Source: Promethearchaeota archaeon
Lineage (GTDB): Archaea > Asgardarchaeota > Lokiarchaeia > Sigyniarchaeales > SOKP01
Length of the DNA stretch: 45,426 bases
Direction: 5' to 3'
Assembly (NCBI GenBank): GCA_019058015.1
Contig: JAHLWH010000232.1
Location: forward strand, 1-45,426
How positions within the stretch are numbered: the first letter of the stretch is position 1; every line of letters begins with the position of its first letter. The translations under genes were made by a program, and so were the position numbers. Shown here piece by piece: positions 7,798-25,561 of this stretch. The notes beneath the pieces are model-generated. The model saw only the letters and a list, made by a program, of their open reading frames with translations, searched no databases and was not told the DNA's origin.

Positions 7798-8976
7798 CTA
7801 AATTTCAACGTCATACTCTAATTGGTCGATAATTTCTATTAGATCTAAGATTTCAAACCCCATGTTAAATATTTCATTTGCATCACTTAAATTTGTTCTA
7901 CAAAATGGACATGTTGAAGATACAATTGATGCCCCAGTTTCTTTTGCTTCTTCTAATCTTTCCTGTGATATTTCAACAGACCAATCTGGGTATCCAATTT
8001 TAACACCTCCTCCAGCACCACAACACCATGCGTGATTCCGATTTCGCCTCATTTCTACAAAATTAATTCCAGGAATCTGTTTATATACATCTCTTGGGAT
8101 TTCATATATGCCAGAATGTCTGCCTAAATGACATGGATCGTGATAGGTCACAGTTTTATTGTAGTTTGATTTGAATTTTAATTTTCCTTTATCTAATAAT
8201 TCCTTAAGCAGTTCAGCAGTATGATATAGTTCAAAATCATAATTAACACCAAATTTTTCAAAATCATTCTTTAATGTTCGATAACACCCAGCACAGGAAG
8301 TAATTACCCTGAATGCACCCGCTTCTTTTATCTTTTCTATATTATAATTCATAAATTCTTTTGAAATCGAAATTTGACCCGTTCTTATCATGGGAGATGT
8401 ACAACAATGTTCATCGATTAGTGTAAAATCAATATTTGCCCTTTTGAGAAAGTTTAATGTTGCATCTCTTAAGGATTGTTGGCGATAATTTGAAGTGCAT
8501 CCAATATAATATACCCATTCTGCTTTATCGGGTAAATCATATTTTTTCTTTAGCTCTTCATTATCAGAATTTGGTTCATCATAAGGATTAAATTTTTTAA
8601 TAGCTCGCTCAATTAGTTTTTCTTGGTTTTGGGCTGGACCGATATGTTTAACTGCTAACTCTCTCAAGGCTTCTATCATATTAACAATATAATCTGCATG
8701 TGGTGCTTGACATGCATCCATGCAAGCTCCACAAGTAGGGCATGCAAAAATGGCATCCTTTAAATCATCGCTCCATTCTAAATCTCCATTTAATACTCCA
8801 CGTATAGTTCTTATCTTTCCAGATGCCCAAAACGATTCAAACAGGAATTTTTCACCAGAAGGACATGATGGTTCAAAAGTCTTATATCCATACTTACAAG
8901 TGCTACACTTGATACATCTTTCAAAAGCCATCTCTAAATATTCTTTTCCCATTAAACTATTATCTATTTCCACCAT
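7798..8976 (-). CDS. Fe-S oxidoreductase, HdrD/GlcF-like (ferredoxin-type clusters + two CCG domains)
   Basis: CIKCSTC..CP; CPTCGACMDAC; YYIGC; HCC; TSCAGCY; YHDPCHLGR; WCCGAGGG; STCPFC. Confidence 0.92.
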   Translation of the reverse strand: MVEIDNSLMGKEYLEMAFERCIKCSTCKYGYKTFEPSCPSGEKFLFESFWASGKIRTIRGVLNGDLEWSDDLKDAIFACPTCGACMDACQAPHADYIVNMIEALRELAVKHIGPAQNQEKLIERAIKKFNPYDEPNSDNEELKKKYDLPDKAEWVYYIGCTSNYRQQSLRDATLNFLKRANIDFTLIDEHCCTSPMIRTGQISISKEFMNYNIEKIKEAGAFRVITSCAGCYRTLKNDFEKFGVNYDFELYHTAELLKELLDKGKLKFKSNYNKTVTYHDPCHLGRHSGIYEIPRDVYKQIPGINFVEMRRNRNHAWCCGAGGGVKIGYPDWSVEISQERLEEAKETGASIVSSTCPFCRTNLSDANEIFNMGFEILDLIEIIDQLEYDVEI

Positions 8977-10452
8977 TTATGTATTCCACCTTCCAGGATT
9001 AAGAATTGCATTGGGGTCCATCATTTTTTTTACCTTCTCAAACAATTTTAGCCATCCAGGATTAATTTTTTTACGCATCTTTTCCGTCATCCAGGCAGGC
9101 GTTTTATAAGGGATACAACCCAATTCTAAACAAGTATCAATGATTTCTTCTAATAACTTATGAATTCTTTCCTCATCTTTAAATTTATCAAAGCGTATTA
9201 TTGGTCTAAATATGCAATAATGTGAATATTTCATACTTTTCATGTAAAGGTACAATGGAACATTATATTTTTTAAAAAGTTTATCTACTTTTTGTGATAA
9301 TTCTTCTATTTTATGAGAGGGAGCATAACTACCAAACCATGTTAAACCAGAATATTCAAATAAAGATAAAACCATTGATGGTAAATCAACTAAACTACGA
9401 AGTCTTAAGTTAAATAATTTTACAAATTCATCAAAATCTATTGAATATATTCTAATACCCTGTTGTTTAATTTTCTCAATTATGTTTAAATATATCTCCT
9501 TTTTTGCTTTATATTGATTCTCTGTATGAGCTGTTATTGTGGAAATCGACATCATTCTTGGCTCGCCCGGAAATGTTTTAGGTTCCGGAATTCCACAGCA
9601 CATTTTGACTATTTCAATGCTTCCAAGGGCAATATCATCAATAACCTCCGTCCTTCCAATTTCTCTACAAATTTCTCCTACATCCTTTAAGTTAAAAATT
9701 ATTAATGCTTCAAATTTTCGAATTGGTTTCTTTGGCCATAACTGAACTGCACATTTTGTTATTAATCCGGTCATCCCTTGCCAATTAACAAATAATCCCA
9801 TTAAATCGGGCATTGGATAACGACTCCACCAACTATCAGGGTCAGCTTCTTCCTTCCCATAAAAACATGAACCTATCCTTGCGATATCTCCATCAACTGT
9901 AATAACTTCTAAACCGTTAATAGAATCCCCCATTGATCCAATTTTACATGACATATTATTCATTCCGCTTAACATAGCATTTCCTACTACACCTGCATAG
10001 GGGGGTGCAAATGGATAATTATATCTAAGGTGGGGGAAGTTTTCATCTAAATGCTTTTTTAATTGTCCAAATGTCACTCCAGGTTCTAGTAAAGCATACA
10101 TCATATTTTCATTTATATGTAAAATTTTATTCATTTTTTTACCGAAATCTACGATAATTCCTCCCCGTTCCGGTATTGTGAGGCCTCCAACATTATTTCC
10201 AGAGATATAGGGAACGATAGGGATTACATTTTGATTACAATATTTAACTAATTCTACTAATTGTTCTTTATTTTCTGGGATTACAACAAAATCCGGCATA
10301 TTTGGAGCGCATTCGGTCATATCATAAGAATAAGGATATAAATCAACACTTTTACTTGATACATTCTCCTTTCCAAAAATTTCAACTAATTTTTGATAAA
10401 CTTCTTCTTTATTGACTTTTTCAAAAATATTTGTTTCTTTAGTGATTGTCAT
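8977..10452 (-). CDS. FAD-binding oxidoreductase, VAO/PCMH (GlcD/alkyl-DHAP-synthase-like) family
   Basis: PDFVVIP, GGIIVDF, EPGVTFGQL, QGMTGLITK and C-terminal DPNAILNPG; abuts the Fe-S partner gene. Confidence 0.9.
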   Translation of the reverse strand: MTITKETNIFEKVNKEEVYQKLVEIFGKENVSSKSVDLYPYSYDMTECAPNMPDFVVIPENKEQLVELVKYCNQNVIPIVPYISGNNVGGLTIPERGGIIVDFGKKMNKILHINENMMYALLEPGVTFGQLKKHLDENFPHLRYNYPFAPPYAGVVGNAMLSGMNNMSCKIGSMGDSINGLEVITVDGDIARIGSCFYGKEEADPDSWWSRYPMPDLMGLFVNWQGMTGLITKCAVQLWPKKPIRKFEALIIFNLKDVGEICREIGRTEVIDDIALGSIEIVKMCCGIPEPKTFPGEPRMMSISTITAHTENQYKAKKEIYLNIIEKIKQQGIRIYSIDFDEFVKLFNLRLRSLVDLPSMVLSLFEYSGLTWFGSYAPSHKIEELSQKVDKLFKKYNVPLYLYMKSMKYSHYCIFRPIIRFDKFKDEERIHKLLEEIIDTCLELGCIPYKTPAWMTEKMRKKINPGWLKLFEKVKKMMDPNAILNPGRWNT

Positions 10453-10464
10453 AAATTTTACCTC

Positions 10465-10887
10465 TTACCTGGTTTTCTTATTCAATTCAAAATAATTGGT
10501 ATTAGGTTCCGCTGCGACCATTTGCATAGAAACCATAAAAATATTGTAAAATTTAACCAAATTTGTACTATCGTTTCCTAATCCTTCCATCTCCATTAAA
10601 CCATTTTCCATACCAAAAATTGGATTTTCCCTACCGTAAGCGAAATCCAACATTGTTTGCAAGTTAAGCTTTACTTTCATATCAGCCTTATCGGATTTTC
10701 CCATCTCGAACTTTATCTCATTACCCTCAAAAATAACAGTTAATGGATAAAATGGTTCTATATGAATAACAACTTTCTTATTCCAGTTAGAGACAAGTTT
10801 AATGAATTCTTCTTCATTTTTTCTATAATTAAAAATGTTATACAAGGATATCGAAATTAAATCCTCGGGTTTTTGTATTGAAATCAT
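10465..10887 (-). CDS. SCP2 sterol/lipid-carrier-like protein
   Basis: 140 aa; GKSDKADMKVKL..LDFAYGRENPIFGMENGLMEMEG resembles the SCP2 C-terminal signature. Confidence 0.65.
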   Translation of the reverse strand: MISIQKPEDLISISLYNIFNYRKNEEEFIKLVSNWNKKVVIHIEPFYPLTVIFEGNEIKFEMGKSDKADMKVKLNLQTMLDFAYGRENPIFGMENGLMEMEGLGNDSTNLVKFYNIFMVSMQMVAAEPNTNYFELNKKTR

Positions 10888-10998
10888 CTTTTAATCACTT
10901 TAATTTTAGTAAACATTATTTATGTTATTATTTGATATTAGCTATAATTAATTTATATTTTTATAAAGTATTCAGAAAGTGATATAAAAATAGAACAT

Positions 10999-11751
10999 TT
11001 GCAAGATCTAAGGAAAATAATTGAAGCTTTTGTGAATAATAATGAAAATTTTAAAATTTATGATGCTCCCCAAAATCTATTAGAATATTTGATAAGTGTG
11101 GGATTAGGTGTTAAACTGGACTCATTTAAAGAAATTATTTTGGAAGAGGAAACTCAGATTGAATTGGGTGGTATTAAAAACTATTCAACTTCCGTAATTT
11201 ATCCAATATCAGATAAAAACTGTATTCATGACGGTAATATTATTTTAATTGGCCCTGAGATACAGGAGATTCAAGAAAACAATATAGATTTTGGTCAAAT
11301 TATAATTATTGCAGGAGAAAATATATCAGAATCTCACTACACTGACTTCCAGAGATTGCAGTTTATTTCTGATAGTATTGAGGGGTTCATGATTCGCTCA
11401 ATTCCTCGAAGATTTTGGTGTAGAATAAGTAAAGATGCAATTAAGAAAGGTTTTTCATTTAATTTATTGGGAAATTCAATTATATATCTATTCAAAAAAC
11501 AATTTCCGGAGTTAATAGAAGCTGTAGAAATAATTTTTATAAGCGCTAATGAGCAAAATATCAAAAAATTTCAAGAAGTTATTTCAAAAATTAGAGAAAT
11601 ATATAAAAGAAATTGGGCTAAAAAAATTGAAGAATGGAAAGAACGTGTAGATTGTAATTATGATTGGATCTGTGATGTGTGTCCTTATAACGAAACATGT
11701 TATAATATTTCAGATATATATGTGCTAAGAAAAAATATTGAATTCGACTAA
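10999..11751 (+). CDS. truncated acetyl-CoA synthase beta subunit (CdhC/AcsB)-like protein with a C-terminal Cys4 motif
   Basis: IELGG, DGNIILIGPEI and IEGFMIRSIPRRFWCRISKDAIKKGFSFNLLG resemble CdhC N-terminal/middle region; only 250 aa; ends CNYDWICDVCPYNETC; TTG start. Confidence 0.7.
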   Translation: MQDLRKIIEAFVNNNENFKIYDAPQNLLEYLISVGLGVKLDSFKEIILEEETQIELGGIKNYSTSVIYPISDKNCIHDGNIILIGPEIQEIQENNIDFGQIIIIAGENISESHYTDFQRLQFISDSIEGFMIRSIPRRFWCRISKDAIKKGFSFNLLGNSIIYLFKKQFPELIEAVEIIFISANEQNIKKFQEVISKIREIYKRNWAKKIEEWKERVDCNYDWICDVCPYNETCYNISDIYVLRKNIEFD

Positions 11752-11765
11752 TTAAAAAAATTATT

Positions 11766-12548
11766 ATGAGCCAAAAAAAGCCTTATATTATAGCAGTTAT
11801 AGGAAAGGGTGGTTCAGGAAAATCAGTATTTTGCGCCATCTCAATAATGATAATTGCTAATATGAAAAGATTTAAATTATTTGCGGTTGATGCAGACCCA
11901 ACTCATTCTCATTTATCTGATCTTCTTGATGTGAAAATTGATAAAAGTTTAGAAGCAATCAGGAAGGAAATTATTAAAACTGCAGCACAAGGAAGGGAAT
12001 CTGGAAAAATAAAATTGGCAGAAGACATAGATTATTTAGTTTATAATGCAATCGTTGAAAATAAAGATTTCTCCTTATTAGCTGTAGGACTTCCCGAAGG
12101 TCCTGGATGTTTTTGTCCAGCAAATAGTTTACTGAAAAAAGTAATATCTTCAATATCTTTGGATTTTGATATAGTTCTAATTGATTGTGAAGCCGGTTTG
12201 GAGCAAATAAGTAGAGAAGTAATCAGCAATGTAGATACAATAATCATAATATCAGACATTTCAGTTAGGAGTATAGAAACAGCTAAAACCCTACTTCAAA
12301 ACTCTAAAAAATTTACAAAATATAAACATATCGGTATTGTCGTTAATAGAGTTCGAGGAGATATATCTTATCTAAGAAAAAAAATTAATGATATGAATAT
12401 ACCAATTTTTGGAGAAATCCCTGAAGATGATAATGTTATAAAATTAGATATTGAAGGTAAATCAATGAGAAATTTATCCTTTGATACATCAATATATAAA
12501 AGTATTGAAAAAATTATACAGAAAGTTTTAGATTTCATGTATCATTAA
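11766..12548 (+). CDS. cooC: CooC/AcsF-type nickel-insertion ATPase
   Basis: GKGGSGKS deviant Walker A; VDADP; EGPGCFCPAN Ni-binding CxC; IDCEAGLEQISR. Confidence 0.88.
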   Translation: MSQKKPYIIAVIGKGGSGKSVFCAISIMIIANMKRFKLFAVDADPTHSHLSDLLDVKIDKSLEAIRKEIIKTAAQGRESGKIKLAEDIDYLVYNAIVENKDFSLLAVGLPEGPGCFCPANSLLKKVISSISLDFDIVLIDCEAGLEQISREVISNVDTIIIISDISVRSIETAKTLLQNSKKFTKYKHIGIVVNRVRGDISYLRKKINDMNIPIFGEIPEDDNVIKLDIEGKSMRNLSFDTSIYKSIEKIIQKVLDFMYH

Positions 12549-12591
12549 AAGATTTAAAGATATAATTAAAAAAAAAATTATAAGATATATT

Positions 12592-13992
12592 TTAAACACT
12601 TACATGTTTTTCTAATTTTTCTTTATGTAATTTATCAGATTCCAATTTTATCTGCTCATATTTTTCCTTAGTAATTGGAAATCGACTCATTGATACGATT
12701 CCAATGCATAAGGCAATCGCAGGGAATATAAACATCAAACTTCGAAGTCCAAATTCAACAATGTTTAAGTCCACATCCTCAGTAAAAACTTTCCAACCAA
12801 CACTAGTAAAAACTATACTAATTGTAAGAAATATTAAAATTGTTGATAATTTTGTTATCAAGGCATTTATTCCGTAATAACCCCCTTCTCGTCTTATTCC
12901 CGTAGTTAATTCATCCTCATCAATGACCGTAGCTAAAACGAGATCTACATATAATAAATCTCCTGCAAGACCTATTCCAACAATAAAAAACGCTATAAAG
13001 GCAGTAATAACATCAGAAATGAACATGAATGGAAGAAGTGTGATAATAAACGTAGCCATTGACATCATTAGACCTTTTTTTACTCCAACCTTAACAACTA
13101 CCCAACGCCAAAAAAATATAAATATCGCTGCAGAAATAAATGTTACTCCCAATAAAAGACCTAATATTGTTGAATTTGTTTCCTTCAATACAAATTCACC
13201 GTAGAGTGGAACAATGGTAGGAAGCATTCCTATAACATACCAATGTCCAAGATTTGCAATAATAAAAGTTCTAAATCCTTTGTTCTTTATTGAAACTTTT
13301 AAAGATTTCAATAATGAGGGAGCTGTTTTATAATCCTCAGAAAATTCAGCTCTTTCCCGTATACCAAATTTTATTAAGAAAATTGCGCCTATTGCTATGC
13401 AAATGCACATAAATATCCCTGCATAACTGTATTCGGTCAAATAAACAGGATTTGCTAATTCAGGAATGAAAAATGTTGGCATTATAAAAGCAAATATTAG
13501 ACCAATAACCGTAAAAATCTGCTTAATAGTATTAGCTTTTGCTCTATCACTTAATTTTAAGAACATCTCAGGAAATAAAGATGCATAGTTTAAATCAAAC
13601 ATCGTATAGAAGAATTCCCATATGATTATTATAACTAAAAAATATGTGAATTTTGTAATATCAGTTGTAAGAACCGGAGTCCACAATAAAATCATTATTA
13701 GACATAACGGGATAATGGCAGCAATAATATACGGTTTTCTTCTACCCCATTTTGTTCTCGTGCGATCAGATAATGCACCCAATAGAGGATCATTAAATGC
13801 ATTCCAAACAGACCAAATAATAAAACCAACCGTAATATAAATTACATCTAATCCAACTACAGCATAGTAAAATGTAAAAATTAAGAAGGTAAACATTTGG
13901 GAGGCAATTGTATCCGAGAATTGACCTACTCCATAGGCTGCTGCATTTCTTATCGAAAATTGTTCTTCAATCTTTCTACTTTCTTTACTCAT
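12592..13992 (-). CDS. MFS transporter, glycoside-pentoside-hexuronide (MelB-like) family
   Basis: WNAFNDPLLGALSDRTRTKWGRRKPY; DEDELTTGIRREGGYYG; about 12 hydrophobic segments. Confidence 0.92.
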   Translation of the reverse strand: MSKESRKIEEQFSIRNAAAYGVGQFSDTIASQMFTFLIFTFYYAVVGLDVIYITVGFIIWSVWNAFNDPLLGALSDRTRTKWGRRKPYIIAAIIPLCLIMILLWTPVLTTDITKFTYFLVIIIIWEFFYTMFDLNYASLFPEMFLKLSDRAKANTIKQIFTVIGLIFAFIMPTFFIPELANPVYLTEYSYAGIFMCICIAIGAIFLIKFGIRERAEFSEDYKTAPSLLKSLKVSIKNKGFRTFIIANLGHWYVIGMLPTIVPLYGEFVLKETNSTILGLLLGVTFISAAIFIFFWRWVVVKVGVKKGLMMSMATFIITLLPFMFISDVITAFIAFFIVGIGLAGDLLYVDLVLATVIDEDELTTGIRREGGYYGINALITKLSTILIFLTISIVFTSVGWKVFTEDVDLNIVEFGLRSLMFIFPAIALCIGIVSMSRFPITKEKYEQIKLESDKLHKEKLEKHVSV

Positions 13993-14137
13993 TTTTATTC
14001 ATTTATTTTAGATTTGAATTTAATTTATTGAATAAATTTTCATCAACAAATTATAAAATGTTTTAGTTTGGGAAATTTAATTTACAGTTAAATAGTTCTT
14101 CTAAATATTTAAAAGTATCAGCAAACCGTTCAATTCT

Positions 14138-15121
14138 TCATTTTTTTAATGTGGTAATTGGGCGGCTTTGTAATATGTATATTTTATCATTTTCTATTGC
14201 CCATTCAATATCTTGAGGTAAATTGAATGCATTTTCAATTTTTAATCCTAAATTATGAAGTTGGCGAAGTTGTTTTTCGTTTATAGAGCAGACTGTCCTG
14301 GATTTGGAGTCTGTTTCTATCAAAATGGTATATGATCCTTTAGGATTTTTAATCGACTTTTTCTCTTTTTTACCGATAATCCTCTTTATAATTTCGAATT
14401 GATTTTTTTTAATTATAATAGTATCTGGGATTATTAAATCATCCGCAATAGTATTACCAAGCCCCCATGTGGAATTTATCAACATTTGGTTCGAATCATT
14501 ATTTATTACATTAGATGTAAAAAAAACTCCTGATATTTGTGAATTAACCATTTGTTGAACAATAACAGCCATATAAATATCAGACAATGAAATATTTAAT
14601 CCTTTTTTCCACATTTGAAGGAAGTAAAGCATTGATCGAGGTGAAAATAATGATAACCAGCAATTTTTTAAAGATGCTATAATATCATGAATATTAATGT
14701 TACATAAATAGGTATCAGCTTGTCCAGCAAAGGAGAATTTTTTGGAATCTTCGATTGTTGCTGAAGATCTAACTGCGAAAGAAATTTTACTCCCAATTTT
14801 TTTTTTAATTTTATCAAATGCTACTCTGATTTCATCGATTATTATTTTAGGAATTTTTGATTTCAGTATTAAATCTCTGATTTTTATTGAGTCTTGTAGA
14901 ATTTCTTTTAAATGAAAACGTTTTGATAATAATTTCATCAATTTATCGCTGTATTCAGATTCTTCAAGGAATTTTCTATAAGATTTTGTATTGATAATGA
15001 ATCCGGGAGGGACTATTACTCCTATTTCGATTAATTTGATTAAATTGGATCCTTTACCTCCCAATAAATCAGTATTAGGTGTTACTTCTGAAAAAAATAC
15101 AACGTATTCCGAAAGTTTCAT
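14138..15121 (-). CDS. stand-alone PEP synthase/PPDK N-terminal ATP-grasp (nucleotide-binding) domain
   Basis: GGKGSNL, VPPGF, AVRSSATIED, SFAGQ, MAVIVQQMV, WGLG, PQDIEWA, ILQSRPITT, then stop; no His or pyruvate domain. Confidence 0.92.
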   Translation of the reverse strand: MKLSEYVVFFSEVTPNTDLLGGKGSNLIKLIEIGVIVPPGFIINTKSYRKFLEESEYSDKLMKLLSKRFHLKEILQDSIKIRDLILKSKIPKIIIDEIRVAFDKIKKKIGSKISFAVRSSATIEDSKKFSFAGQADTYLCNINIHDIIASLKNCWLSLFSPRSMLYFLQMWKKGLNISLSDIYMAVIVQQMVNSQISGVFFTSNVINNDSNQMLINSTWGLGNTIADDLIIPDTIIIKKNQFEIIKRIIGKKEKKSIKNPKGSYTILIETDSKSRTVCSINEKQLRQLHNLGLKIENAFNLPQDIEWAIENDKIYILQSRPITTLKK

Positions 15122-15388
15122 AGATATTCTTTGAAATTGTAATTAATAAAATATATTTAATTAAATATTAAAAATTTTTATCATTTTAAAATAACTCCTT
15201 TATTATTTTTATTTAATTTAATAAAAATAGCAAATACTACTTTCCTAATTTGTTAATTTTTTAATTTTTAAGATATCATAAAGCATATTTTTATTTGAAT
15301 CTTTTAAAAAATAAAGTTTTATTAAAGATTAAGAAAAATAATAAAATAATATTCATTCAAAATAATATTTTCAATATAGTTGATTTAG

Positions 15389-15745
15389 ATGAAAAAAATT
15401 GGGGAGGGATTATCTTGTTCATCCAATTCAGAAGTTACAGGAGAATTGGTGTATATTCAATCCGTTCAGGACGTTATAAATTTATTTGATGATGCCAATG
15501 GGAAAATATGCATAGTTGAGGATTCTGGTACTACTACTCTTGGTCCAATTTTATCAGAATTAGCCGGTGTATTGTGTCCAATAGGTTCTGTAGGCTCACA
15601 TCTTGCAATAGTTTCAAGAGAATTCGAAATACCTTGCATAATGAGTGTAGAATTTTTATTAGAAGATTTATCATCACTGAATAGAAAAAAGGGAAAAATT
15701 ATTACAGAAAGTGAAGCTAAGGGAATTATCTATTTACTTGAGTGA
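15389..15745 (+). CDS. stand-alone PEP-utilizing enzyme mobile (phosphohistidine swivel) domain, copy 1
   Basis: GVLCPIGSVGSHLAIVSREFEIPCIM matches the G..SH.AI..RE.GIP phospho-His signature. Confidence 0.88.
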   Translation: MKKIGEGLSCSSNSEVTGELVYIQSVQDVINLFDDANGKICIVEDSGTTTLGPILSELAGVLCPIGSVGSHLAIVSREFEIPCIMSVEFLLEDLSSLNRKKGKIITESEAKGIIYLLE

Positions 15746-15835
15746 TTTTTAATTTAAATCTAAAAATATTATTTTTAGAAAATGAGTTAATGTAGTTAAG
15801 ATCAAAAAATAAGAAGATTATAATGAGTGATTTAT

Positions 15836-17200
15836 ATGTTAGGTGATATTAGCGATGATGAAGCCAATGAACTAATCGCATTGTTTTCTAATAGTGTTAT
15901 AGAAAATTTTCTTAATCGAGGGATGGTAGAAAGTAAAGTATTTCCTGTAACGCATTACATTCACGTCGCCTGTTATATTTTATATGATCAATCTTATCAA
16001 TATAATATTTTAAAAAAAGTTGCAAGTAAGATATCTCCAGAGGACATCGCCAGAAGATCTAAATCCTTAGGCTCACGATTAAACCAGTTGTCTTTTTATT
16101 CTATATGCATGTTGTATTTACACGGTCGGGCTCAAGTTATTCATGATAATCTCACTAAAAAAAAGGTTGGCGAAACTAATATCGTTGTTGCGCCTGAAAC
16201 GAAGAAAAAAGAAACAAAATTCATTCTTGACTTTTGGAAAAGATTGAGTCCCAATTATCTCAATGATGGGCAGCTAACGGTGAAAAATAAAAAAATTAGA
16301 TGCCTTTCCGATGATTATATTAAAAAATTAAAAGATGATATGATCCCTATCAATAATAAAGAGATAACTAAGCGATTAAAACAAACAATCGCCCATTTGA
16401 CCATCTATAGTTTCCTTTCTCAAGCCGAGTGCCGATTGAGCATTTCTGAACAGGGACCATATTATTTTGAAGGCAACACTGAACCTTTAATATTCAAGGA
16501 ATTCCTGGATCTGCCTACTGGTGATGAAATATTTGGAATAGATATGTCTGGAAATATGCCATATAAAATCACCAAGATCGCACCAATTCCAAATGTAATA
16601 TTTGGAATGACGCTGAAAGATATGAAAAAAATCGAATTTAACGATTGGAGCACATTATTTGCCGATCCAGCTGAGTTTTCTTCAAACATAACATCAATAG
16701 GGATTTGGACAAGAGAATTAATGCATGAAAAAGATCTTAGGTATCCTGAAAATTTAGGTGATTTAAAACCCCTATCGCTTGATATCTTAGAGGAACTGTC
16801 TGAATTTGCAAAAAATGCCACGAAGGAATTATATATTGACATATCGAAATGGAGTTTTACTAAAAAATTGCTCTTCGGTACAAACCTTTATGCTAATTTA
16901 GTATCGGCTTTATGTACCCGTTATGCAGGATTAGAAGATGATTTTAACTGGACTTGGGCTTTTGATATTGCCGCAAATAAACCACTTAAGACTGACTCAA
17001 TAGATGAAAAAAGAATAAAGTTTTACATTGAAAAATTAGGCAAAAAAATAAAGACCAACCTAGATGAAAAAGAAGTAAAGAAATTGCATATTACAGCTTT
17101 AGAAAAATACCAAGGTGTACATCCTTTCCTTACACGAATATTTAGGCGTAGAAAACTCCAACAAATAGACCCGTTATATTATTATTTACAAGATGAATAG
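15836..17200 (+). CDS. uncharacterised ~454-aa protein, copy 1 (candidate substrate-binding subunit of the split dikinase)
   Basis: Long ORF; start moved from GTG 15827 to ATG 15836 to match paralog MLGDIS; no family recognised; function inferred from context only. Confidence 0.8.
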   Translation: MLGDISDDEANELIALFSNSVIENFLNRGMVESKVFPVTHYIHVACYILYDQSYQYNILKKVASKISPEDIARRSKSLGSRLNQLSFYSICMLYLHGRAQVIHDNLTKKKVGETNIVVAPETKKKETKFILDFWKRLSPNYLNDGQLTVKNKKIRCLSDDYIKKLKDDMIPINNKEITKRLKQTIAHLTIYSFLSQAECRLSISEQGPYYFEGNTEPLIFKEFLDLPTGDEIFGIDMSGNMPYKITKIAPIPNVIFGMTLKDMKKIEFNDWSTLFADPAEFSSNITSIGIWTRELMHEKDLRYPENLGDLKPLSLDILEELSEFAKNATKELYIDISKWSFTKKLLFGTNLYANLVSALCTRYAGLEDDFNWTWAFDIAANKPLKTDSIDEKRIKFYIEKLGKKIKTNLDEKEVKKLHITALEKYQGVHPFLTRIFRRRKLQQIDPLYYYLQDE

Positions 17201-17288
17201 TCAATTGTAGATTTAATAAAAAAAGTAAAATATATTCATAAAATAATAAATTGATATTACTTTTAAATAATATTTTTAGTTGATTTAA

Positions 17289-17645
17289 ATGAAAAAAATT
17301 GAGGAAGGCGCTTCTTGTTCGTCCAATTCAGAAGTTTTAGGAGAATTTGTGTATATCCAATCCGTTGAAGACGTAATAAATTTATTTGATGATGCTAACG
17401 GGAAAATATGTATCGTAGATGATTCGGGTACTAATACTCTTGGTCCAATTTTATCAGATTTAGCAGGAGTATTGTGTCCACTCGGTTCTGCGGGCTCACA
17501 TCTAGCTATAGTTTCAAGAGAATTCGAAATACCTTGTATAATGAGTGTAAACTTTTTAATAGACGATTTGTCATCACTAAATAAGAAAAAGGGAAAAAAA
17601 GTTACGGAAAGTGAAGCCAAGGGTATTATTTATTTACTTGAGTAA
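17289..17645 (+). CDS. stand-alone PEP-utilizing enzyme mobile (phosphohistidine swivel) domain, copy 2
   Basis: GSAGSHLAIVSREFEIPC; close paralog of 15389-15745. Confidence 0.88.
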   Translation: MKKIEEGASCSSNSEVLGEFVYIQSVEDVINLFDDANGKICIVDDSGTNTLGPILSDLAGVLCPLGSAGSHLAIVSREFEIPCIMSVNFLIDDLSSLNKKKGKKVTESEAKGIIYLLE

Positions 17646-17695
17646 TTAACAAAATTATTTTCAATTTAAATCTAAAATTATAAGGAGTTGTTTAT

Positions 17696-19063
17696 ATGCT
17701 AGGTGATATTAGCGACGAAGAAGCAAATGAACTAATCGCGTTGATTTCTAAGAGCGTTGTAGAAAATATTCTAAAGCGAGGAATGGTTGAAAGTAAAATA
17801 TTTTCAGTATCGCATTACCTTGCCGTTGCTTGTTATGTTTTATACGATCAATCTTATCAATATAATATCTTAAAAGAAGTTGCAAGTAAGATATCGCCTG
17901 AGGACATCGCCAGAAGATCGAAATCCTTAGGTCCAGGATTAAACCAATTGGCTTTTTATTCTACATGTATGTTGTATTTGCATGGTCGAGCTCAAGTTAT
18001 TCATGATAACCTCAGTAAAAAAAAAGCTGGCGAAACTAATATCGTTGTTGAGCCCGAAACGAAGAAAAAAGAAACAAAATTCATTCTTGACTTTTGGAAA
18101 AGATTGAGTCCCAATTATCTCAATGATGAGACATATATATTGAAAAATAAAAAAATTACGTGCCTTTCCGACGATTATATTGAAAAATTAAAAGATAATA
18201 TGATCCCTATAAATAATAATAAAGAGATAACCAAGCGTTTAAAGCAAACCATCGCCCATTTAACCATCTATAGTTTCCTTTCCCGAGCCGAGTGTAGAAT
18301 GAGCATATCTGAGCATGGACCATATTATTTTGAAGACAACACTGAACCTTTAATATTCAAAGAATTCCTAGAACTACATACTGGGGATGTAATGTTTGAA
18401 ATAGATATGACTGGAAATATGCCATATAAAATCACCAAGATTGCGCCGTTTTCAAATGTGATATTTGGAATGACGCTGAAAGATATGAACAAAATCGAGT
18501 TTAATGATTGGAGCACTTTATTTGCCGATCCAACCGATTTTTCTTCAAACATAACATCAATAGGGATTTGGACAAGAGAATTATCGCACCCAAAAGATCT
18601 TAGATATCCTGATAATATAGGTAAATTAAAACCCCTCTCGCTTAATATCTTAGAGGAACTGTCGAAATTTGCAAAAAGTGCCACGAAAGAATTATATATT
18701 GATATATCGAAATGGAACTTTACTAAAAAATTGCTTTTTGGGAGTCACGTTTATGTTAATAGCCTCTTAAGTGTGTGTGCCCAATACGCAGGTATAGAAG
18801 ATAACTTTAACTGGACTTGGCCTTTTGACTATGCCTCGGGTAAACCACTTAAAACTGACTTAATAGACAAAGAAAAAATAAAGTTCTATATTGATAAATT
18901 AGGGAAAAAAATAAAGACTAGCCAAGATGAAAAAGAAGCAGAAAAATTGCAAATTACAGCTTTAGAAAAATACGAAGGAGTACATCCATTTATGACGCGA
19001 ATCTTTAGGAGTAGAAGAGCCCAAAAATTAGACCCATTTTATTATAAATTACAAGATGAATAG
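17696..19063 (+). CDS. uncharacterised 455-aa protein, copy 2
   Basis: Close paralog of 15836-17200; AAGGAG upstream of ATG. Confidence 0.85.
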   Translation: MLGDISDEEANELIALISKSVVENILKRGMVESKIFSVSHYLAVACYVLYDQSYQYNILKEVASKISPEDIARRSKSLGPGLNQLAFYSTCMLYLHGRAQVIHDNLSKKKAGETNIVVEPETKKKETKFILDFWKRLSPNYLNDETYILKNKKITCLSDDYIEKLKDNMIPINNNKEITKRLKQTIAHLTIYSFLSRAECRMSISEHGPYYFEDNTEPLIFKEFLELHTGDVMFEIDMTGNMPYKITKIAPFSNVIFGMTLKDMNKIEFNDWSTLFADPTDFSSNITSIGIWTRELSHPKDLRYPDNIGKLKPLSLNILEELSKFAKSATKELYIDISKWNFTKKLLFGSHVYVNSLLSVCAQYAGIEDNFNWTWPFDYASGKPLKTDLIDKEKIKFYIDKLGKKIKTSQDEKEAEKLQITALEKYEGVHPFMTRIFRSRRAQKLDPFYYKLQDE

Positions 19064-19126
19064 TCAATTGTAGATTTAATAATAATAAAAAGTAAAATAA
19101 AATAGTTCAAACTTCGGTTCTTAGTG

Positions 19127-20113
19127 TTAATCCCGCGTTGTGGATAAATACTCCGAAATACCATCACCTTCTTTACCATCACAAGTGAATACCGCTACTT
19201 GCTCGTAAATTTCAGTTAATCCTTTCTCGGATGGAAGAGGTAAATATTGCGAAAATATTGTTTTTGATTCTATGGTTCTTTTCTTTCCATTTTCATCCGT
19301 TAAGATAAATGTTGATGAAACAGGTGTTTTTTCGTTTTCTTTCGTTTTTGTGGTCACTTCTATGTTTTCTATTCTAATATTATCAGCGCCTTTAGAATAA
19401 ATTATTCCATCTTGTTTTACTTCACCAAGGGCTTCAGCTTTATAAAAATTAATTGTCTCATCTTCAAACTGGGCAGAAACCCAATTCCATGCATCAATTC
19501 CAGCCCAATCCCTAATACCCCAGCTGTGATCACGATGACCGAAACCCTTAATGTTTCTTGTTTCAGTTATCTCCCCATTTTTCTTCAGATCCAAAGTACC
19601 TGTAGCTATCATAGGTTGCTCATAATGCATCTGAGCAAATACTTGATCTGTCTTAATTTGATCCTTCTTAAGAAAAGCTAAGGGATCTTCACCCTCAGCT
19701 GAATTAAATATTGGAAACCTTCCCTCAAAGTTAATATTTAAATTAACTCTACTATTTTTGAATTTAATTCTCCATTGTTTCATTGGTTTGATGCAATAAT
19801 ACTTAATTTTCGCATCGAATTCCCAATTATCAGGCATTTTTTCAAGGGGAATTTCCTTAAAATAAGTTTTCGTCTTACCATCAATTACTAATAATAATAA
19901 GATCAGAGATTTCTTTTTACCCATTTCGAACGCTAGTCTAGTAATAAAAAAAACCTTATTTGGGCGATCAATAAAATTAAAGTACCAACTCTCGTTATGG
20001 AATGGAGGGAATTTTCCCCAATCATGCATATATTCATCCTTTTCGGATATATCAAAACCTTTATTAATTTGTTTCTTGAGTTTTTTCTCTTTTGTCATAA
20101 TATTTCCATTCAA
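19127..20113 (-). CDS. CrtC/tocopherol-cyclase-like (AttH-like beta-barrel) protein
   Basis: NESWYFNF, HYEQ and GHRDHSWGIRDW motifs; true start may be ATG at 20098 (MTKEKK). Confidence 0.6.
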   Translation of the reverse strand: MNGNIMTKEKKLKKQINKGFDISEKDEYMHDWGKFPPFHNESWYFNFIDRPNKVFFITRLAFEMGKKKSLILLLLVIDGKTKTYFKEIPLEKMPDNWEFDAKIKYYCIKPMKQWRIKFKNSRVNLNINFEGRFPIFNSAEGEDPLAFLKKDQIKTDQVFAQMHYEQPMIATGTLDLKKNGEITETRNIKGFGHRDHSWGIRDWAGIDAWNWVSAQFEDETINFYKAEALGEVKQDGIIYSKGADNIRIENIEVTTKTKENEKTPVSSTFILTDENGKKRTIESKTIFSQYLPLPSEKGLTEIYEQVAVFTCDGKEGDGISEYLSTTRD

Positions 20114-20336: not shown

Positions 20337-21623
20337 CTATAATAAAGTATTGGCAAACATCTTAATCTTATTTTTAATCATTTTTATAGATGTCATTCTC
20401 TGATCCCCAACATCAAGTTCTATAATAAGCATCGGGATTCCAACTTCATCTTTTAAGGCTTCTCTTAAAATTTGTGGAACCGAACCAAACTGCTTACAAC
20501 CTATATGAGAAGTATAAATAAAACAATCTGCACTAAAATCTTTTGCAAATTTTACACAATCATCGATAAAAGGATCAAAAAATTGAGTTGATTGTTTCAT
20601 CATTGGAAAATCCATTGTTCTTTTTGCCATTCCCTTAAATAGCGTATCTAAGCCTGATTTAGTATTTATCGGTTCCGTTAAATTATAATTAAAGATATCA
20701 AATAGAATTGACATACCAATTTCTCTCTCTAACCATTCACATATAGCAAAATCAAAAAAGATTAGCATGTAAGGCCAAATGCTTCTTATTTTTTCTTCTC
20801 CACCTGAATGTTCCCCGCGCTTATATCTTTTTTTTATGATTTCCAACATCTCAGTGTAAAAGGCAATATTTTCAGGTTTTCCAGCCATAAGAATGGTTGC
20901 TCCAGCAGAAAATGCATTAAAGAGGTTTTCTACGGGGCAGGGAATTGCTTTTTTTAATTCGAATATTTCCAATTGAATTTTTTGAACCTGATTTTCTATT
21001 TCTATATTTTTTTTCATTCTATTAAAATCAGGTTCCTGGTCAATAACCTTTCCTAATTCATATAATGTAAGTTTAAGTTGCTTACCATAATATTCATAAC
21101 TTTTTTCTTCGTGAAGAAAAGGGATATCAGAAAGAATTAATGGGATATTTTTATACTTAAAAAATGGGTAAGAAGCAACAGAATTATCGCATGGGCCTGT
21201 TGGACAAATAATAGCGTCAAATTTAAATAAATCATCTAGTGTCATAGCCATTACTCCTTTTTGACTACTACATGTATGATATGGATGTCCCCAATTGTTA
21301 ATTATATCATAATATTTTTCAGCACCTTCAGGTAAAAGTGCTGCAAGAAGATATGAAACTGCTTCTATACAAACAGGTACACAATCAAAGCAATAAAGAT
21401 ATTCCGATGGAAAAGCAAAATTATATCCAACTATTGGTAATCCTTCTCTAGCCTTTTCAATAGCTTCTGATAATACAGATTCAAAACATTTTGTACCTAT
21501 TTTAATTGAGGGTATTTCTTGTTCTGGTAATATTCTCTCAGTTAATTCACATGTAGTTGCAATAGTTTCTAATAACATTTTATAAGGGATTACTCGATCT
21601 TCCATTTTAGTCCTATCAATCAT
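20337..21623 (-). CDS. 2-hydroxyacyl-CoA dehydratase family subunit (HgdA/B, benzoyl-CoA reductase-like)
   Basis: Three conserved Cys motifs HTCSSQK, PCDN and HIGCKQ; C-terminal GIPMLIIELDVGDQR..KIKMF. Confidence 0.85.
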   Translation of the reverse strand: MIDRTKMEDRVIPYKMLLETIATTCELTERILPEQEIPSIKIGTKCFESVLSEAIEKAREGLPIVGYNFAFPSEYLYCFDCVPVCIEAVSYLLAALLPEGAEKYYDIINNWGHPYHTCSSQKGVMAMTLDDLFKFDAIICPTGPCDNSVASYPFFKYKNIPLILSDIPFLHEEKSYEYYGKQLKLTLYELGKVIDQEPDFNRMKKNIEIENQVQKIQLEIFELKKAIPCPVENLFNAFSAGATILMAGKPENIAFYTEMLEIIKKRYKRGEHSGGEEKIRSIWPYMLIFFDFAICEWLEREIGMSILFDIFNYNLTEPINTKSGLDTLFKGMAKRTMDFPMMKQSTQFFDPFIDDCVKFAKDFSADCFIYTSHIGCKQFGSVPQILREALKDEVGIPMLIIELDVGDQRMTSIKMIKNKIKMFANTLL

Positions 21624-21637
21624 TTCTTTAACCTCTT

Positions 21638-22900
21638 TTATAATAATGTGTTTGTAAACATTCTAATCTTATCCTTCACAGTTTTAATAGAGGCAAAGCG
21701 CTTGTCACCTACATCTATATCTATAATTAATAGAGGGATACCTAATTCATCTCTTAAGGCTTCCCTAGGAAGTTGAGGAATAGACCCGAACTGCTTACAA
21801 CCTATGTGAGAAGTAAATATTCCGCAATCAGCTTTAAATTCTTTTGTAATATTTATAAATTCTGGAATGAAATCATCATAAAAATCAATAGATTGCTTAA
21901 TCATTGGAAAATTCATTGATTTTCGTGCCATATCATTAAACATTTTATCTTCCGAACTTGTATCTACAGGGTCATATAAATTGTAAGAAAAAATATCTAA
22001 TAAAACTGACATCTTAATTTCTCTATCCAACCATTCACATAAAGCTAAATCAAAGAATATGGTCATATAAGGCCAGATTGAACGAATCTGTTCTTCTATA
22101 GGACTTTCTTTTTTTTTATATCTTTTTTTTGCTAGAGCTAGCATATTTTCATAAAAATCTAATTTCTCTGGACGTCCTGCCATAAATACTGCAGCAGCAG
22201 CAGACATTGGGTTTATCATGCTCTCAAGTGGACAAGGAGTAGCTTTTTTTAATTCAAATAATTCAAATTCTAGTTTTAATGATTGATTTTCAATTTCTAA
22301 AGATTTCTTTATTTTATCGAAGTCTGGTTCTTGACCAATTATTTTGCCAATTTCACTTAATCCTATTTTGATTTGCTCAGCATAAAATTCATAACTTTTC
22401 TCTTCACGGATAAAGGGCATGTCTGTGATAACCAAAGGAATATCTTTATATTTAAAGAAAGGGTATGAAGCATATGTATTATCGCAGGGAGCAGTTGGAG
22501 TGGTTATTACATCAAATTTAAATAAATCATCCAATACCATGCCCATTACTCCCTTCTGGGAAGAGCATGTATGATAGGGGTGTCCCCAGTGAGTAATTAA
22601 GTCATAATATTTTTCTGAACCGTTAGGAAGTAATGCCGCCAATAAATATGATGTTCCTTCAATACAAATAGGAACACAGTCAAAACAATGTAAAAATTCT
22701 GCTGGACATGCAAAATGATAACCGATTATTGGCAATCCTTCTTCTGCTTTTTGAATATAGTCAATTAAACATTTTTCTAAATTTTTTAATCCCATTTTTA
22801 AAACTTGCATTTCATGTTCTGGAACAATTCTCCATACCAACTCATAGGAATTTGAAACAACTTCTAACAACATTTTATAAGGGATAATTTTTTCTTTCAT
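21638..22900 (-). CDS. 2-hydroxyacyl-CoA dehydratase family subunit, tandem paralog
   Basis: Same Cys motifs; co-linear with 20337-21623. Confidence 0.85.
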   Translation of the reverse strand: MKEKIIPYKMLLEVVSNSYELVWRIVPEHEMQVLKMGLKNLEKCLIDYIQKAEEGLPIIGYHFACPAEFLHCFDCVPICIEGTSYLLAALLPNGSEKYYDLITHWGHPYHTCSSQKGVMGMVLDDLFKFDVITTPTAPCDNTYASYPFFKYKDIPLVITDMPFIREEKSYEFYAEQIKIGLSEIGKIIGQEPDFDKIKKSLEIENQSLKLEFELFELKKATPCPLESMINPMSAAAAVFMAGRPEKLDFYENMLALAKKRYKKKESPIEEQIRSIWPYMTIFFDLALCEWLDREIKMSVLLDIFSYNLYDPVDTSSEDKMFNDMARKSMNFPMIKQSIDFYDDFIPEFINITKEFKADCGIFTSHIGCKQFGSIPQLPREALRDELGIPLLIIDIDVGDKRFASIKTVKDKIRMFTNTLL

Positions 22901-23185: not shown

Positions 23186-25561
23186 TTATCCCATTTTTGC
23201 TTCAACAATATGTTTTTTGCCGTCTTTAAAGACTGGAACGAGATTACTTTCTGGTATTATTTTATCTACTCTTATCTCTTTTATTCCTTTGGACACATGA
23301 TTTGGATTTTGAACCTGTATATCATAAACTGCATTCCTAAAGTGTCGAGTAAATCTGAATTTATCCCATTTTTTTGGAATACATGGGTCAACTATTAAAC
23401 CATGAAAATCTGGTCGTATTCCAAGAATCCATTCTGTTGCAACTTTCATTGACCATGATGCTGTTCCGGTAAGCCATGAGTTTTTCGCAGCTCCAAATTT
23501 TGGATGATCATCCCCTGTTATCATTTGAGAATAGATATAGGGTTCAGTTTGATGTATTTCTGCAATTTTATTTTTATTAGTTGGAGCAATTTTCTTATAG
23601 TATTCGTAGGCAATATCTCCTCGTCCTAGAATGCATTCAGCCATTTCCGCCCAAGGATTAGTGTGGCAAAAAATAGAAGCGTTTTCTTTAAGACCAGGGG
23701 GAAAAGTACTTATTCCTTTTAATTCTGGATAGAATCGTGTATATGGAGGGTGGAATAATTTAATACCATATTTAGTAATGAGATATTTCCTAATAGAATT
23801 CATACACTGAAGTCCTCTATCTACTGGAGCAACTTTACTATAAACAGCCCAAGACTGCGTGTTTAGGAAAATTTTCCCTTCGTTATTTTTTTCACTTCCT
23901 ATAATTTCTCCATTATCAGTAAAAGCACGAATATACCATTGACCATCCCATGCGTGTTTGTTAATATGTTCATTTATTCTCTTAGCTAAATTAGTATAAT
24001 TAGTAGCATCTTTGTTATGATTATACTCCTTCGCAAGTTCTTCTAAGTCTAAAAGTGCTTTGTGGAATTGCATAGCAACCCAAACACTTTCACCACTCTT
24101 ATTTGGACCATGTAGTTGAAGAGAATCATTCCAATCGGCAGTACCTATGAGAGGGAATCCATGTGGTCCCATGTGATTGTTTGTAAATTCTATCGCTCTC
24201 TTAAGATGATCATATAAAGGCGCCTTAGAGCCTTCAACGAACTCTACTTCTTCTCTTAAAATTGACATATCTCCAGTTTCTTTTATATAATTGCTAACAG
24301 CTATTATAAGCCATAGATGATCATCACTAAAGAATTTCATAAGAGGATTAACGTAGTCAGGATAATTTCCTTCACCAGATAGAGGGAAATATACATGGTA
24401 TACTTTCCCATTTTCAAACTGATTCTTAGTAAGATCTAATAACCTTTGACGAACCATCTTTGGAAGTGCATGACAAATTGCGAGAGTATCTTGGCTACTA
24501 TCACGAAATCCTATCCCTCTACCTATACCTGTTTCATAAAATGAAGCATATCGAGCCCAATCAAAGGTTGTTTTACACTGATATGGATTCCAAATGTTTA
24601 TAATGGAATTAAAGTCTTCATCAGGTGTTTCTACAATAATTTTTTCGAGATAGCTTTTCCATGCCTCTTTTAGTTTTAAAAGTTCAATTTCAATATTGCT
24701 ATTATTCTTGTATTTATGAATTATTGGTTTTACCTCAGATTTTTTTTTAACAATGCCTAATATGAATAAAATATTCTCAGTTCCATTAGGATTTAATATT
24801 AAAGTATTACAAGTAGCAGCAATTGGATTTCCACCTAATGCTTGAGAATTTCTGCACTTTCCATTTTCAACACTCAATGGATTTGCCTCGGAATGATATT
24901 GACCAATAAAAGATTCTCGATCGCAATCATGACTTGTTACATTACCATTCGATGAAAAAAATGCAATACCTAAAGATGAATCGAAAAGATGATAAATTAT
25001 CATATTTTCTTCTTTATCGTATTTTGCAACTGCAACATTTTGAATATATTGGAGATCTCTTTGATCTCCTACTGCGTTCCATAGACAAAATTCAGCATAG
25101 GAAAAAATATTCAATTCTTTTTCTTCCGAGGAATTATTTTCTAGAGTTAATGACCAAACCTCTAAATTATCTTCTAACGGTACAAAATAGAGAATTTCAG
25201 CATGAATATCTTGATAAGAAGAGCTTATTTTAGTATAACCTAATCCATGTCGACATTCATAATTATCAAGTTTCTTCATTACAGGTTGCCATGTGGGAGA
25301 CCAATATTCTGAAGTCTGATTGTCTCTAATATAAATATACCTTCCTGGTCTATCTATGGGTAGATTATTGTATCTATATCGAAGTATTCTTTGGTCTCGT
25401 GGATCTATGTAAAAACTATATCCTCCTCCAGTATTAGAGACCATAGCACAATATTTACTATTATTCAAGTAATTAATCCAAGGCGTAGGTGTATCTGGTC
25501 TTATAATTACATATTCTTTACTTTCTGCAGAAAAATATCCGAATTTTATATCTTTCACCAA
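23186..25561 (-). CDS. GH94 glycoside phosphorylase (chitobiose/cellobiose phosphorylase family)
   Basis: PDTPTPWINYL, RYRYNNLP, GIGRGIGFRDSSQD, catalytic DWND, PPGLKENASIFCH, NSWLTGTASW; short loop after DWND unlike CBP; TTG start. Confidence 0.93.
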   Translation of the reverse strand: MVKDIKFGYFSAESKEYVIIRPDTPTPWINYLNNSKYCAMVSNTGGGYSFYIDPRDQRILRYRYNNLPIDRPGRYIYIRDNQTSEYWSPTWQPVMKKLDNYECRHGLGYTKISSSYQDIHAEILYFVPLEDNLEVWSLTLENNSSEEKELNIFSYAEFCLWNAVGDQRDLQYIQNVAVAKYDKEENMIIYHLFDSSLGIAFFSSNGNVTSHDCDRESFIGQYHSEANPLSVENGKCRNSQALGGNPIAATCNTLILNPNGTENILFILGIVKKKSEVKPIIHKYKNNSNIEIELLKLKEAWKSYLEKIIVETPDEDFNSIINIWNPYQCKTTFDWARYASFYETGIGRGIGFRDSSQDTLAICHALPKMVRQRLLDLTKNQFENGKVYHVYFPLSGEGNYPDYVNPLMKFFSDDHLWLIIAVSNYIKETGDMSILREEVEFVEGSKAPLYDHLKRAIEFTNNHMGPHGFPLIGTADWNDSLQLHGPNKSGESVWVAMQFHKALLDLEELAKEYNHNKDATNYTNLAKRINEHINKHAWDGQWYIRAFTDNGEIIGSEKNNEGKIFLNTQSWAVYSKVAPVDRGLQCMNSIRKYLITKYGIKLFHPPYTRFYPELKGISTFPPGLKENASIFCHTNPWAEMAECILGRGDIAYEYYKKIAPTNKNKIAEIHQTEPYIYSQMITGDDHPKFGAAKNSWLTGTASWSMKVATEWILGIRPDFHGLIVDPCIPKKWDKFRFTRHFRNAVYDIQVQNPNHVSKGIKEIRVDKIIPESNLVPVFKDGKKHIVEAKMG

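Follow-up and report, generated by a model that had tools for sequence, protein, structure and literature searches.

Dikinases that work through a phospho-histidine (phospho-His) swivel domain are textbook enzymes: in PPDK, phosphoenolpyruvate (PEP) synthase (PEPS), rifampin phosphotransferase (RPH) and EI, the swivel carries the phosphoryl group within or between subunits to sites that bind small molecules. The present analysis deals with a stretch of 45,426 nucleotides (nt) from a Promethearchaeota archaeon (contig JAHLWH010000232.1 of assembly GCA_019058015.1), here called the window, in which the interval 14138–20113 harbours separate genes for an ATP-grasp protein, two swivels, two copies (X1 and X2) of a ∼455-amino-acid (aa) protein without family match, termed X, and a DUF7065/DUF7064 protein. 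An even chance is given to the reading that this interval encodes a fully dissociated dikinase that phosphorylates an alcohol held by X, the phosphate then being eliminated to leave a double bond.

The closest described relatives are the two-component dikinases HpeHI of Rhodococcus, CreHI of Corynebacterium and the phenylphosphate synthase PpsAB of Thauera, as set out in the HpeHI paper (PMC12167813). Like the window, these systems possess a stand-alone ATP-grasp subunit, of ∼330–390 aa (327 aa here), and a phospho-His swivel carrier; their separate polypeptides interact transiently (PMC12167813). In all three, however, the swivel is fused C-terminally to an RPH-like substrate domain, which gives two polypeptides, whereas the window encodes a free 118-aa swivel upstream of X. 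Furthermore, X has no detectable likeness to that RPH-type domain, and a constant lyase-homologue partner sets the window apart from these systems. RPH, PigC and PRK06241-type enzymes draw on the same ATP-grasp and swivel families, but are single polypeptides whose central domain is not detectably related to X. PEP synthase and PPDK also combine a PPDK_N ATP-grasp domain with a PEP-utilizers swivel bearing the conserved His; in contrast to the window, they include a PEP/pyruvate TIM barrel, and full-length enzymes of this kind are encoded elsewhere in the genome. The literature search brought up only fused and two-piece dikinases, and no description of a three-component dikinase or of a stand-alone swivel protein.

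A second point of comparison is the degradation of 25-hydroxysteroids, in which a tertiary alcohol is dehydrated in an ATP-dependent manner by a kinase and then a phosphate-eliminating lyase, unidentified at the time (PMC8449060 and PMC11061730). The kinase of Sterolibacterium denitrificans belongs to the APH-type phosphotransferases and yields ADP, and as such is ruled out as a dikinase (PMC8449060); in the vicinity of its gene the 2021 paper had no lyase candidate. This system shares with the scheme proposed here the logic of phosphorylating and then eliminating, as well as a homologous lyase (9fzn, E 2.9e-09). It differs in the kinase, APH-type as against the predicted ATP-grasp, swivel and X, and in organism, substrate and gene linkage. 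No APH-like kinase was found by Pfam among the 14 window proteins scanned.

Protein X and the free swivel

The source genome measures 3.84 Mb and is 94% complete; the window has a G+C content of ∼30%, and its relatives are Asgard archaeal metagenome-assembled genomes (MAGs) labelled Promethearchaeota, Lokiarchaeota or Helarchaeota. Loci, proteins and genomes of this analysis are designated by L-, P- and G-numbers, and contigs by C-numbers. A first-pass annotation of the window had described a free ATP-grasp gene divergent from two cassettes, each composed of a swivel and a ∼455-aa protein. The listing of open reading frames (ORFs) returns the same ORFs at the same positions, all of them intact, and Pfam agrees with the domain assignments. 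For X1, an alignment of 23 homologues identifies the ATG at 15836 (455 aa) as the most likely start, in preference to the GTG at 15827.

The ATP-grasp protein is a PPDK_N domain (PF01326, E 2e-83) that covers profile positions 2–313 of 328. Among PDB sequences it matches best the PEP synthase 8a8e (5.5e-61), followed by RPH (5hv1/5fbs, ∼1e-49) and a stand-alone 387-aa chain, 9goj (2.9e-46), an entry named once in the HpeHI paper (PMC12167813). It is the sole free PPDK_N of the genome, and the free swivels are likewise confined to the window, while three full-length dikinases of 912, 917 and 975 aa are encoded elsewhere. The absence of a pyruvate TIM barrel from the window, noted in the first-pass annotation, holds: in this genome PF02896 is matched on contigs C184 and C21 only. 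The two swivels are 86% identical and both contain the intact phospho-His motif GSHLAIVSRE that had been reported for them. This motif, centred on His71, is invariant in 9/9 and in 14/14 aligned swivels, and S70-H71 and S76-R77-E78 are invariant in the swivel alignments A3 and A4, the canonical fused dikinase swivel included. Judged by sequence, the ATP-grasp and swivel proteins present the two domains that characterize the PEP-utilising dikinase superfamily (PEPS/PPDK/RPH type).

The components of the set were surveyed in 121 sampled genomes of the phylum. X is present in 29 of these genomes, with 44 genes. Free-type swivels occur in 27 genomes, all X-bearing, and in none of the 92 remaining ones; every free swivel (28/28) lies within 7 kb of an X gene and 21 of the 28 within 300 nt. 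Free ATP-grasp genes were detected in 23 genomes, and 22 of the 29 X-bearing genomes possess one; 21 of these 23 genes are located within 300 nt of a swivel. Twenty-seven genomes from several families keep the split form and its intact His motifs, and the four-gene set is repeated at distant Helarchaeota and Promethearchaeota loci (L032, L034 and L035). As X has 173 homologues and 27 of the 121 genomes contain the gene set, these ORFs are more than a product of chance.

Swivel and X are also linked in Bacteria. At bacterial metagenome loci that encode relatives of P0186 and extend at least 450 nt 5' of X, the ORF of a swivel runs up to the start of the X gene in 26 of 26 cases, and the two ORFs usually overlap in differing frames. 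Two proteins, P0177 (575 aa) and P0186 (516 aa), are swivel–X fusions with the swivel N-terminal and the X domain C-terminal, the opposite order to that of HpeHI, CreHI and PpsAB; P0177 stems from Gordonia otitidis, where it is annotated as 'PEP-utilizing enzyme'. VTT/DedA membrane proteins occur at bacterial swivel–X loci as well.

Structure prediction of X2 together with swivel 2 gave a complex score of 0.72, as against 0.01 for the best of three controls. The mark applied is passed by 116 of 157 solved complexes and by 2 of 215 mismatched pairs, rates that are a rough guide here, since own alignments were used. Between runs the contacts agreed to at least 86%, with 109–114 contacts and a partner predicted local distance difference test (pLDDT) of at least 76. 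The predicted interface comprises residues 65–71, thus including His71, and 77–80 on the swivel side, and residues 27–36, 183–201 (with the invariant R201) and 327–338 on the side of X. The score seems unlikely to reflect model memory, because X has no solved relative. Both the genomic linkage and the model support X as the probable partner of the swivel. Co-occurrence of X homologues with swivel and ATP-grasp genes had been set as a test in the first-pass annotation, and the 28 swivels near X and the fusions bear it out. Adjacency and co-occurrence, overlap and fusion of swivel and X in bacteria and the predicted complex make a fully dissociated dikinase a reasonable reading.

The idea that a single ATP module charges two His carriers fits this genome only, to which the arrangement in two cassettes is specific: same-genus G045 carries a single swivel and a single X, and one swivel is the rule in most relatives, several of which combine it with two X genes. 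The two swivel–X cassettes are a lineage-specific duplication that may have produced two specificities.

X itself resists assignment, as had been reported from the outset: neither Pfam nor NCBIfam yields a family for X1 or X2, which are 81% identical. A word-indexed search recovered 173 homologues of 250–797 aa at E ≤ 1e-3, and no fused X forms of 798–2275 aa. Among the 120 of these that were listed, lengths range from 254 to 455 aa, Pfam annotation is absent and the few named proteins are all from Asgard archaea. A HMMER search (94 representatives) adds distant relatives of ∼370–400 aa, a few of them longer, at 20–30% identity. Over 47 members of the superfamily only R98, R201 and Y210 are invariant, and R28, G97, G208, P209, P279 and G349 are nearly so; the Arg/Arg/Tyr trio is kept across Bacteria and Archaea at ∼20% identity. 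Some distant members carry long extra regions without Pfam or NCBIfam match, namely P0168 and P0169 (Burkholderia ambifaria and a metagenome; 726–728 aa) and P0142, P0146 and P0147 (523–554 aa). In G103 and G042, X lies in an open frame of 692 aa, which was considered as an X–DUF7064 fusion and rejected as stop-codon read-through.

The AlphaFold model of X2 (predicted template-modelling score, pTM, 0.80; mean pLDDT 77.4) displays a helical N-terminal part, an alpha/beta centre and a disordered tail beyond residue 403; the central domain (residues 145–370) folded alone reaches a pTM of 0.86. Against 48,161 chains in VIA-align, the best Z was 4.5 both for the whole model (72 residues, root-mean-square deviation (rmsd) 4.6) and for the central domain (78 residues, rmsd 4.9), with no match at Z ≥ 5 in either case. 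Foldseek against the PDB gave best E values of 0.58 (TM 0.10) for the whole model and 0.28 for the central domain. Helix-grip proteins of the Bet v 1, LFS and Aster-like kinds appear repeatedly in the weak part of the Foldseek output (E 0.65–4.7, TM ≤ 0.25), which is a lead and not a finding. Searches of PDB sequences, whether with a single sequence or with profiles A1 and A2, returned unrelated proteins (best E 0.12 and 0.27), and the top score of an ESM Atlas feature search, 0.77, is under any useful level. RPH is absent from all VIA-align and Foldseek match lists, for whole model and central domain alike. When X profiles were compared by hhalign with nine central domains from dikinases of RPH architecture, the probabilities were 0.5% and 0.4% as against 83.6% for the swivel control, a result compatible with very distant kinship, and in the comparison with the genome's own RPH-type dikinase only the swivel was matched. 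The resemblance to RPH, PigC or phenylphosphate synthase substrate domains, for which the first-pass annotation had asked to look, was found by none of hhalign, Foldseek and VIA-align. Its proposal that X is the substrate module of a dissociated dikinase thus keeps the link to swivel and ATP-grasp and gains a predicted complex, but lacks a detected RPH-type likeness and had missed the lyase partner.

The DUF7064/7065 partner

The fourth component matches Pfam DUF7064 (3.9e-15) and DUF7065 (1.9e-06), and the literature search found no function described for this (Rv3169) family. A profile built from 20 family members (A5) matches in the PDB 9fzn_A, '25-phosphosteroid lyase', with an E of 2.9e-09 and 9g4c_A with 4.7e-08; the window's sequence alone reaches 0.45 against 9fzn_A. 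Profile positions 29–202 align with residues 21–182 of 9fzn_A, and the most conserved motif of the family, G-x-RD-x-SWG-x-R, is shared with it. The 'CrtC-like' label attached to this gene in the first-pass annotation has no direct Pfam support, Lipocalin_9 being matched by one of the 20 family members at E 0.091. Nor is the gene mere flanking context, as had been assumed: no other gene accompanies X so constantly, DUF7064 being present on the same contig within 7 kb for 43 of the 44 X genes and within 300 nt for 36, and in relatives it often runs in the same direction as X and overlaps it. DUF7064 occurs in 32 of the 121 genomes, among them 28 of the 29 that carry X, and adjoins X at 18 of 24 public MAG loci. 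In bacteria, a DUF7064 homologue is found at five of the seven loci with at least 1200 nt downstream of X; a Pfam-confirmed DUF7064/7065 gene comes straight after swivel–X at L044 and L048 and, in the case of L059, 1.3 kb downstream.

A divergent DUF7064 paralogue (321–342 aa) accompanies dikinases of the fused architecture. In each of the eight further genomes from the phylum that were examined (L079–L086) it is encoded after a ∼900–938-aa dikinase with the order ATP-grasp, central domain and C-terminal swivel; it adjoins the dikinase directly in seven and is ∼1 kb off in L079. The genome of the window also encodes an RPH-type dikinase (910 aa, NF004878 8e-139; L076:393–3143, minus strand) and a DUF7064 paralogue (L087:1380–2354, minus strand), whose adjacency is not judgeable because both genes are at contig ends. 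As the split set and the fused dikinases both have a DUF7064 partner, lyase-like proteins pair with dikinases in two architectures; in the split one, X stands where the fused enzyme has its central domain.

The proposed dehydration and its alternatives

Because the fourth gene encodes a lyase homologue, the predicted chemistry is phosphorylation and elimination and not plain phosphorylation or ligation. By analogy with PpsAB, HpeHI and RPH, the ATP-grasp protein would charge the swivel at His71 by pyrophosphorylation or phosphorylation. The charged swivel is then predicted to dock on X, its His loop facing the conserved R201 and the R28 segment, and X would take up the acceptor and catalyse transfer of the phosphoryl group onto a hydroxyl. 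The DUF7064 protein would finally eliminate the phosphate, the net outcome being an ATP-driven dehydration that follows the logic of 25-hydroxysteroid kinase and 25-phosphosteroid lyase acting on a tertiary isoprenoid alcohol. The first-pass annotation had suggested a substrate that may be lipid-like or aromatic. A hydrophobic or isoprenoid alcohol can at present only be guessed at, from weak hints: the steroid relative of the lyase, the recurrent SCP2 and GlcD-like FAD oxidase neighbours, the VTT/DedA proteins of bacterial loci, a membrane-like ORF in the f19 cluster, and B12-radical-SAM genes in that cluster and in the window.

A number of observations weigh against this reconstruction. X displays no recognisable fold or catalytic motif, and two of its invariant residues, R98 and Y210, lie outside the confidently predicted interface with the swivel. 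The match to the lyase is strong only in the N-terminal half (29–202), the C-terminal stretch scoring 2.0 bits, and the lyase name of 9fzn is taken from the PDB title. The partner kinase in Sterolibacterium is, according to PMC8449060, an APH-type phosphotransferase and not a dikinase. Ten of the 44 X genes stand on contigs that lack a swivel; one of them is the third, short-type X (389 aa) of the window's own genome, with its own DUF7064 gene directly downstream (L025 on contig C173, 8608–10700, minus strand) and neither swivel nor ATP-grasp in the 20 kb covered. In six genomes of family f19, the closed G043 among them, which carry X, DUF7064, swivel and X, no free ATP-grasp was found, PPDK_N being confined there to the frames of full-length dikinases; the flanks of the bacterial swivel–X loci yielded no ATP-grasp either. 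The trio of swivel, X and DUF7064 can hence exist without a free ATP-grasp protein.

A plain three-component dikinase with a stable phosphorylated product, DUF7064 having some other task in the pathway (that of a hydratase, binding protein or phosphatase-like enzyme, for example), is unlikely but deserves consideration: the known relatives PpsAB, CreHI, HpeHI and RPH make stable phosphoesters (PMC12167813), the lyase homology is firm for one half of the protein, and in the window the DUF7064 gene is convergent with X2 and not co-transcribed with it. This explanation sits poorly with the near-constant placement of DUF7064 beside X, often co-directional and overlapping, with its position after the fused dikinase in all eight genomes examined, and with the name of phosphate lyase given to the sole solved DUF7064 relative.

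Also unlikely, and somewhat harder to sustain, is a core made of swivel, X and DUF7064 in which X binds the phosphoryl donor, or a housekeeping dikinase charges the swivel, the ATP-grasp protein being a later, lineage-specific addition. The f19 genomes and the bacterial loci with a trio but no free ATP-grasp are what such a core would look like, and HpeH alone moves phosphate between phosphorylated and unphosphorylated substrates (PMC12167813). Against it stand the presence of the free ATP-grasp in most X genomes (22/29), nearly always close to a swivel, and its being the only free PPDK_N of the window's genome; moreover, no donor-binding motif is recognisable in X.

It is improbable that X is a protein target or regulator, on which the swivel would dock as a phosphorelay or switch controlling the DUF7064 enzyme or the redox neighbours. 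The want of a known catalytic fold in X and the extensive predicted interface, with its 109–114 contacts, would suit such a role, but swivels are known as phosphoryl carriers to small-molecule sites, the Arg/Arg/Tyr trio is conserved between Bacteria and Archaea in the manner of an active site, and the constant pairing with an enzyme homologue fits a metabolic pathway. Finally, the notion that the genes are functionless, decayed pieces of a once-fused dikinase is scarcely credible, for although the pieces match domains fused in other dikinases, the ORFs are all intact, several families, across 27 genomes, keep the split form with its His motifs unbroken, hhalign detects no relation of X to the central part of fused dikinases (≤ 0.5%, against 83.6% for the swivel control) and three intact full-length dikinases exist elsewhere in the genome.

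Phosphorylation by a dissociated dikinase followed by lyase-type elimination remains the preferred reading. A wider proposal, advanced more tentatively, is that the set represents a new class of ATP-driven dehydratase, with a free phospho-His carrier, an acceptor subunit of new fold, an unreactive alcohol, probably a tertiary or an isoprenoid one, as substrate and a lyase-like elimination step; the class would be spread over Asgard archaea and diverse bacteria and would possess a parallel version composed of a fused dikinase plus a lyase.

Neighbouring genes and implications

The coordinates of the set and of its recurrent neighbours are collected in Table 1.

Table 1. Genes of the split dikinase-like set and recurrent neighbours in the window.
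Feature	Position	Strand	Length	Family match	Remarks
Free PPDK_N ATP-grasp protein	14138..15121	−	327 aa		Ends LQSRPITTLKK; divergent from swivel and X genes
Phospho-His swivel 1, free	15389..15745	+	118 aa	Pfam PF00391, E 2.3e-09	His71
X1	15836..17200	+	455 aa		Frame also open from GTG 15827 (457 aa)
Phospho-His swivel 2, free	17289..17645	+	118 aa	Pfam PF00391, E 8.8e-09	His71
X2	17696..19063	+	455 aa		Predicted docking partner of swivel
DUF7065+DUF7064 protein	19127..20113	−	328 aa	Rv3169 family	Convergent with X2
GlcD-like FAD-linked oxidase	8977–10452	−		Pfam and NCBIfam	Recurrent neighbour; membership uncertain
SCP2 protein	10465–10887	−		Pfam and NCBIfam	Recurrent neighbour; membership uncertain
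Two HGD-D genes (2-hydroxyacyl-CoA dehydratase D-component-like)	20337..22900	−		PF06050, 5.9e-45 and 1.1e-43	Membership uncertain

Relatives of the GlcD-like oxidase and of SCP2 are found near X and DUF7064 in L002 and L009 and near swivel, ATP-grasp and DUF7064 in L033, and an FAD oxidase is also located near the module in L021. Directly upstream of the GlcD-like oxidase gene, the window encodes an HdrB/GlcF/TfrB-like Fe-S protein (7798–8976, minus strand). HGD-D relatives reside beside the module in L002, L003, L009, L016 and L033. The tandem HGD-D genes of the window show weak matches to a double-cubane-cluster reductase, and the scan of 14 window proteins turned up no activator ATPase.

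Further genes of the window surround the set. A B12-binding radical-SAM enzyme, BchE/HpnJ-like, is encoded at 6102–7649 (minus strand), likewise upstream of the GlcD-like oxidase gene. At 10999–12548 (plus strand) a 250-aa protein, to which the CdhC (acetyl-CoA synthase beta) profile matches in part only, is encoded ahead of a CbiA/MinD/NifH-like P-loop ATPase; in L002 this pair is likewise kept next to the module. The module is interspersed with genes for sugar use, namely those for a GPH-family MFS_2 transporter (12592–13992, minus strand), a GH94 cellobiose-phosphorylase-like enzyme (23186–25561, minus strand) and a beta-galactosidase-like protein (27809–30346, plus strand). A bifunctional NAD(P)HX epimerase/dehydratase is encoded at 520–2082 (plus strand), and its presence is probably coincidental. 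A promoter/terminator scan of sigma-70 type gave 33 sites where 36.2 were expected, the model being a sigma-70 one and the host archaeal.

Two loci outside the window show other arrangements. In the f19 cluster L077 (G043:C1:3136000–3155999; genes at 8654–13478 and 13576–18707) the order is X, DUF7064, a 208-aa hydrophobic ORF, swivel and X, and three B12-binding radical-SAM genes flank the cluster on the opposite strand. The 208-aa ORF was examined as a cryptic ATP-grasp and discarded: it is hydrophobic, has no family match and gives BLASTP E values of at least 13. In the four-gene module of L078 (G103:C43) a gene of the histidine phosphatase superfamily (His_Phos_1; 4090–4644, minus strand) is situated directly downstream of the DUF7065 gene.

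If the proposed reading is correct, a free swivel that feeds a subunit of unrecognisable fold would extend the modular logic of the dikinase family, and a function would be available for the X family, which at present has 173 word-indexed homologues and 94 HMMER representatives and no Pfam or NCBIfam annotation. ATP-dependent dehydration has so far been described for anaerobic steroid side-chain degradation and for NAD(P)HX repair (PMC8449060). Were the coupling to a lyase to hold, such dehydration would be a broader way to remove poor leaving groups without oxygen, and the DUF7064/7065 (Rv3169) family would acquire a role. The system consists of four small soluble proteins and is directly testable. 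As a guess, the substrate in Asgard archaea could bear on their lipid or isoprenoid metabolism.

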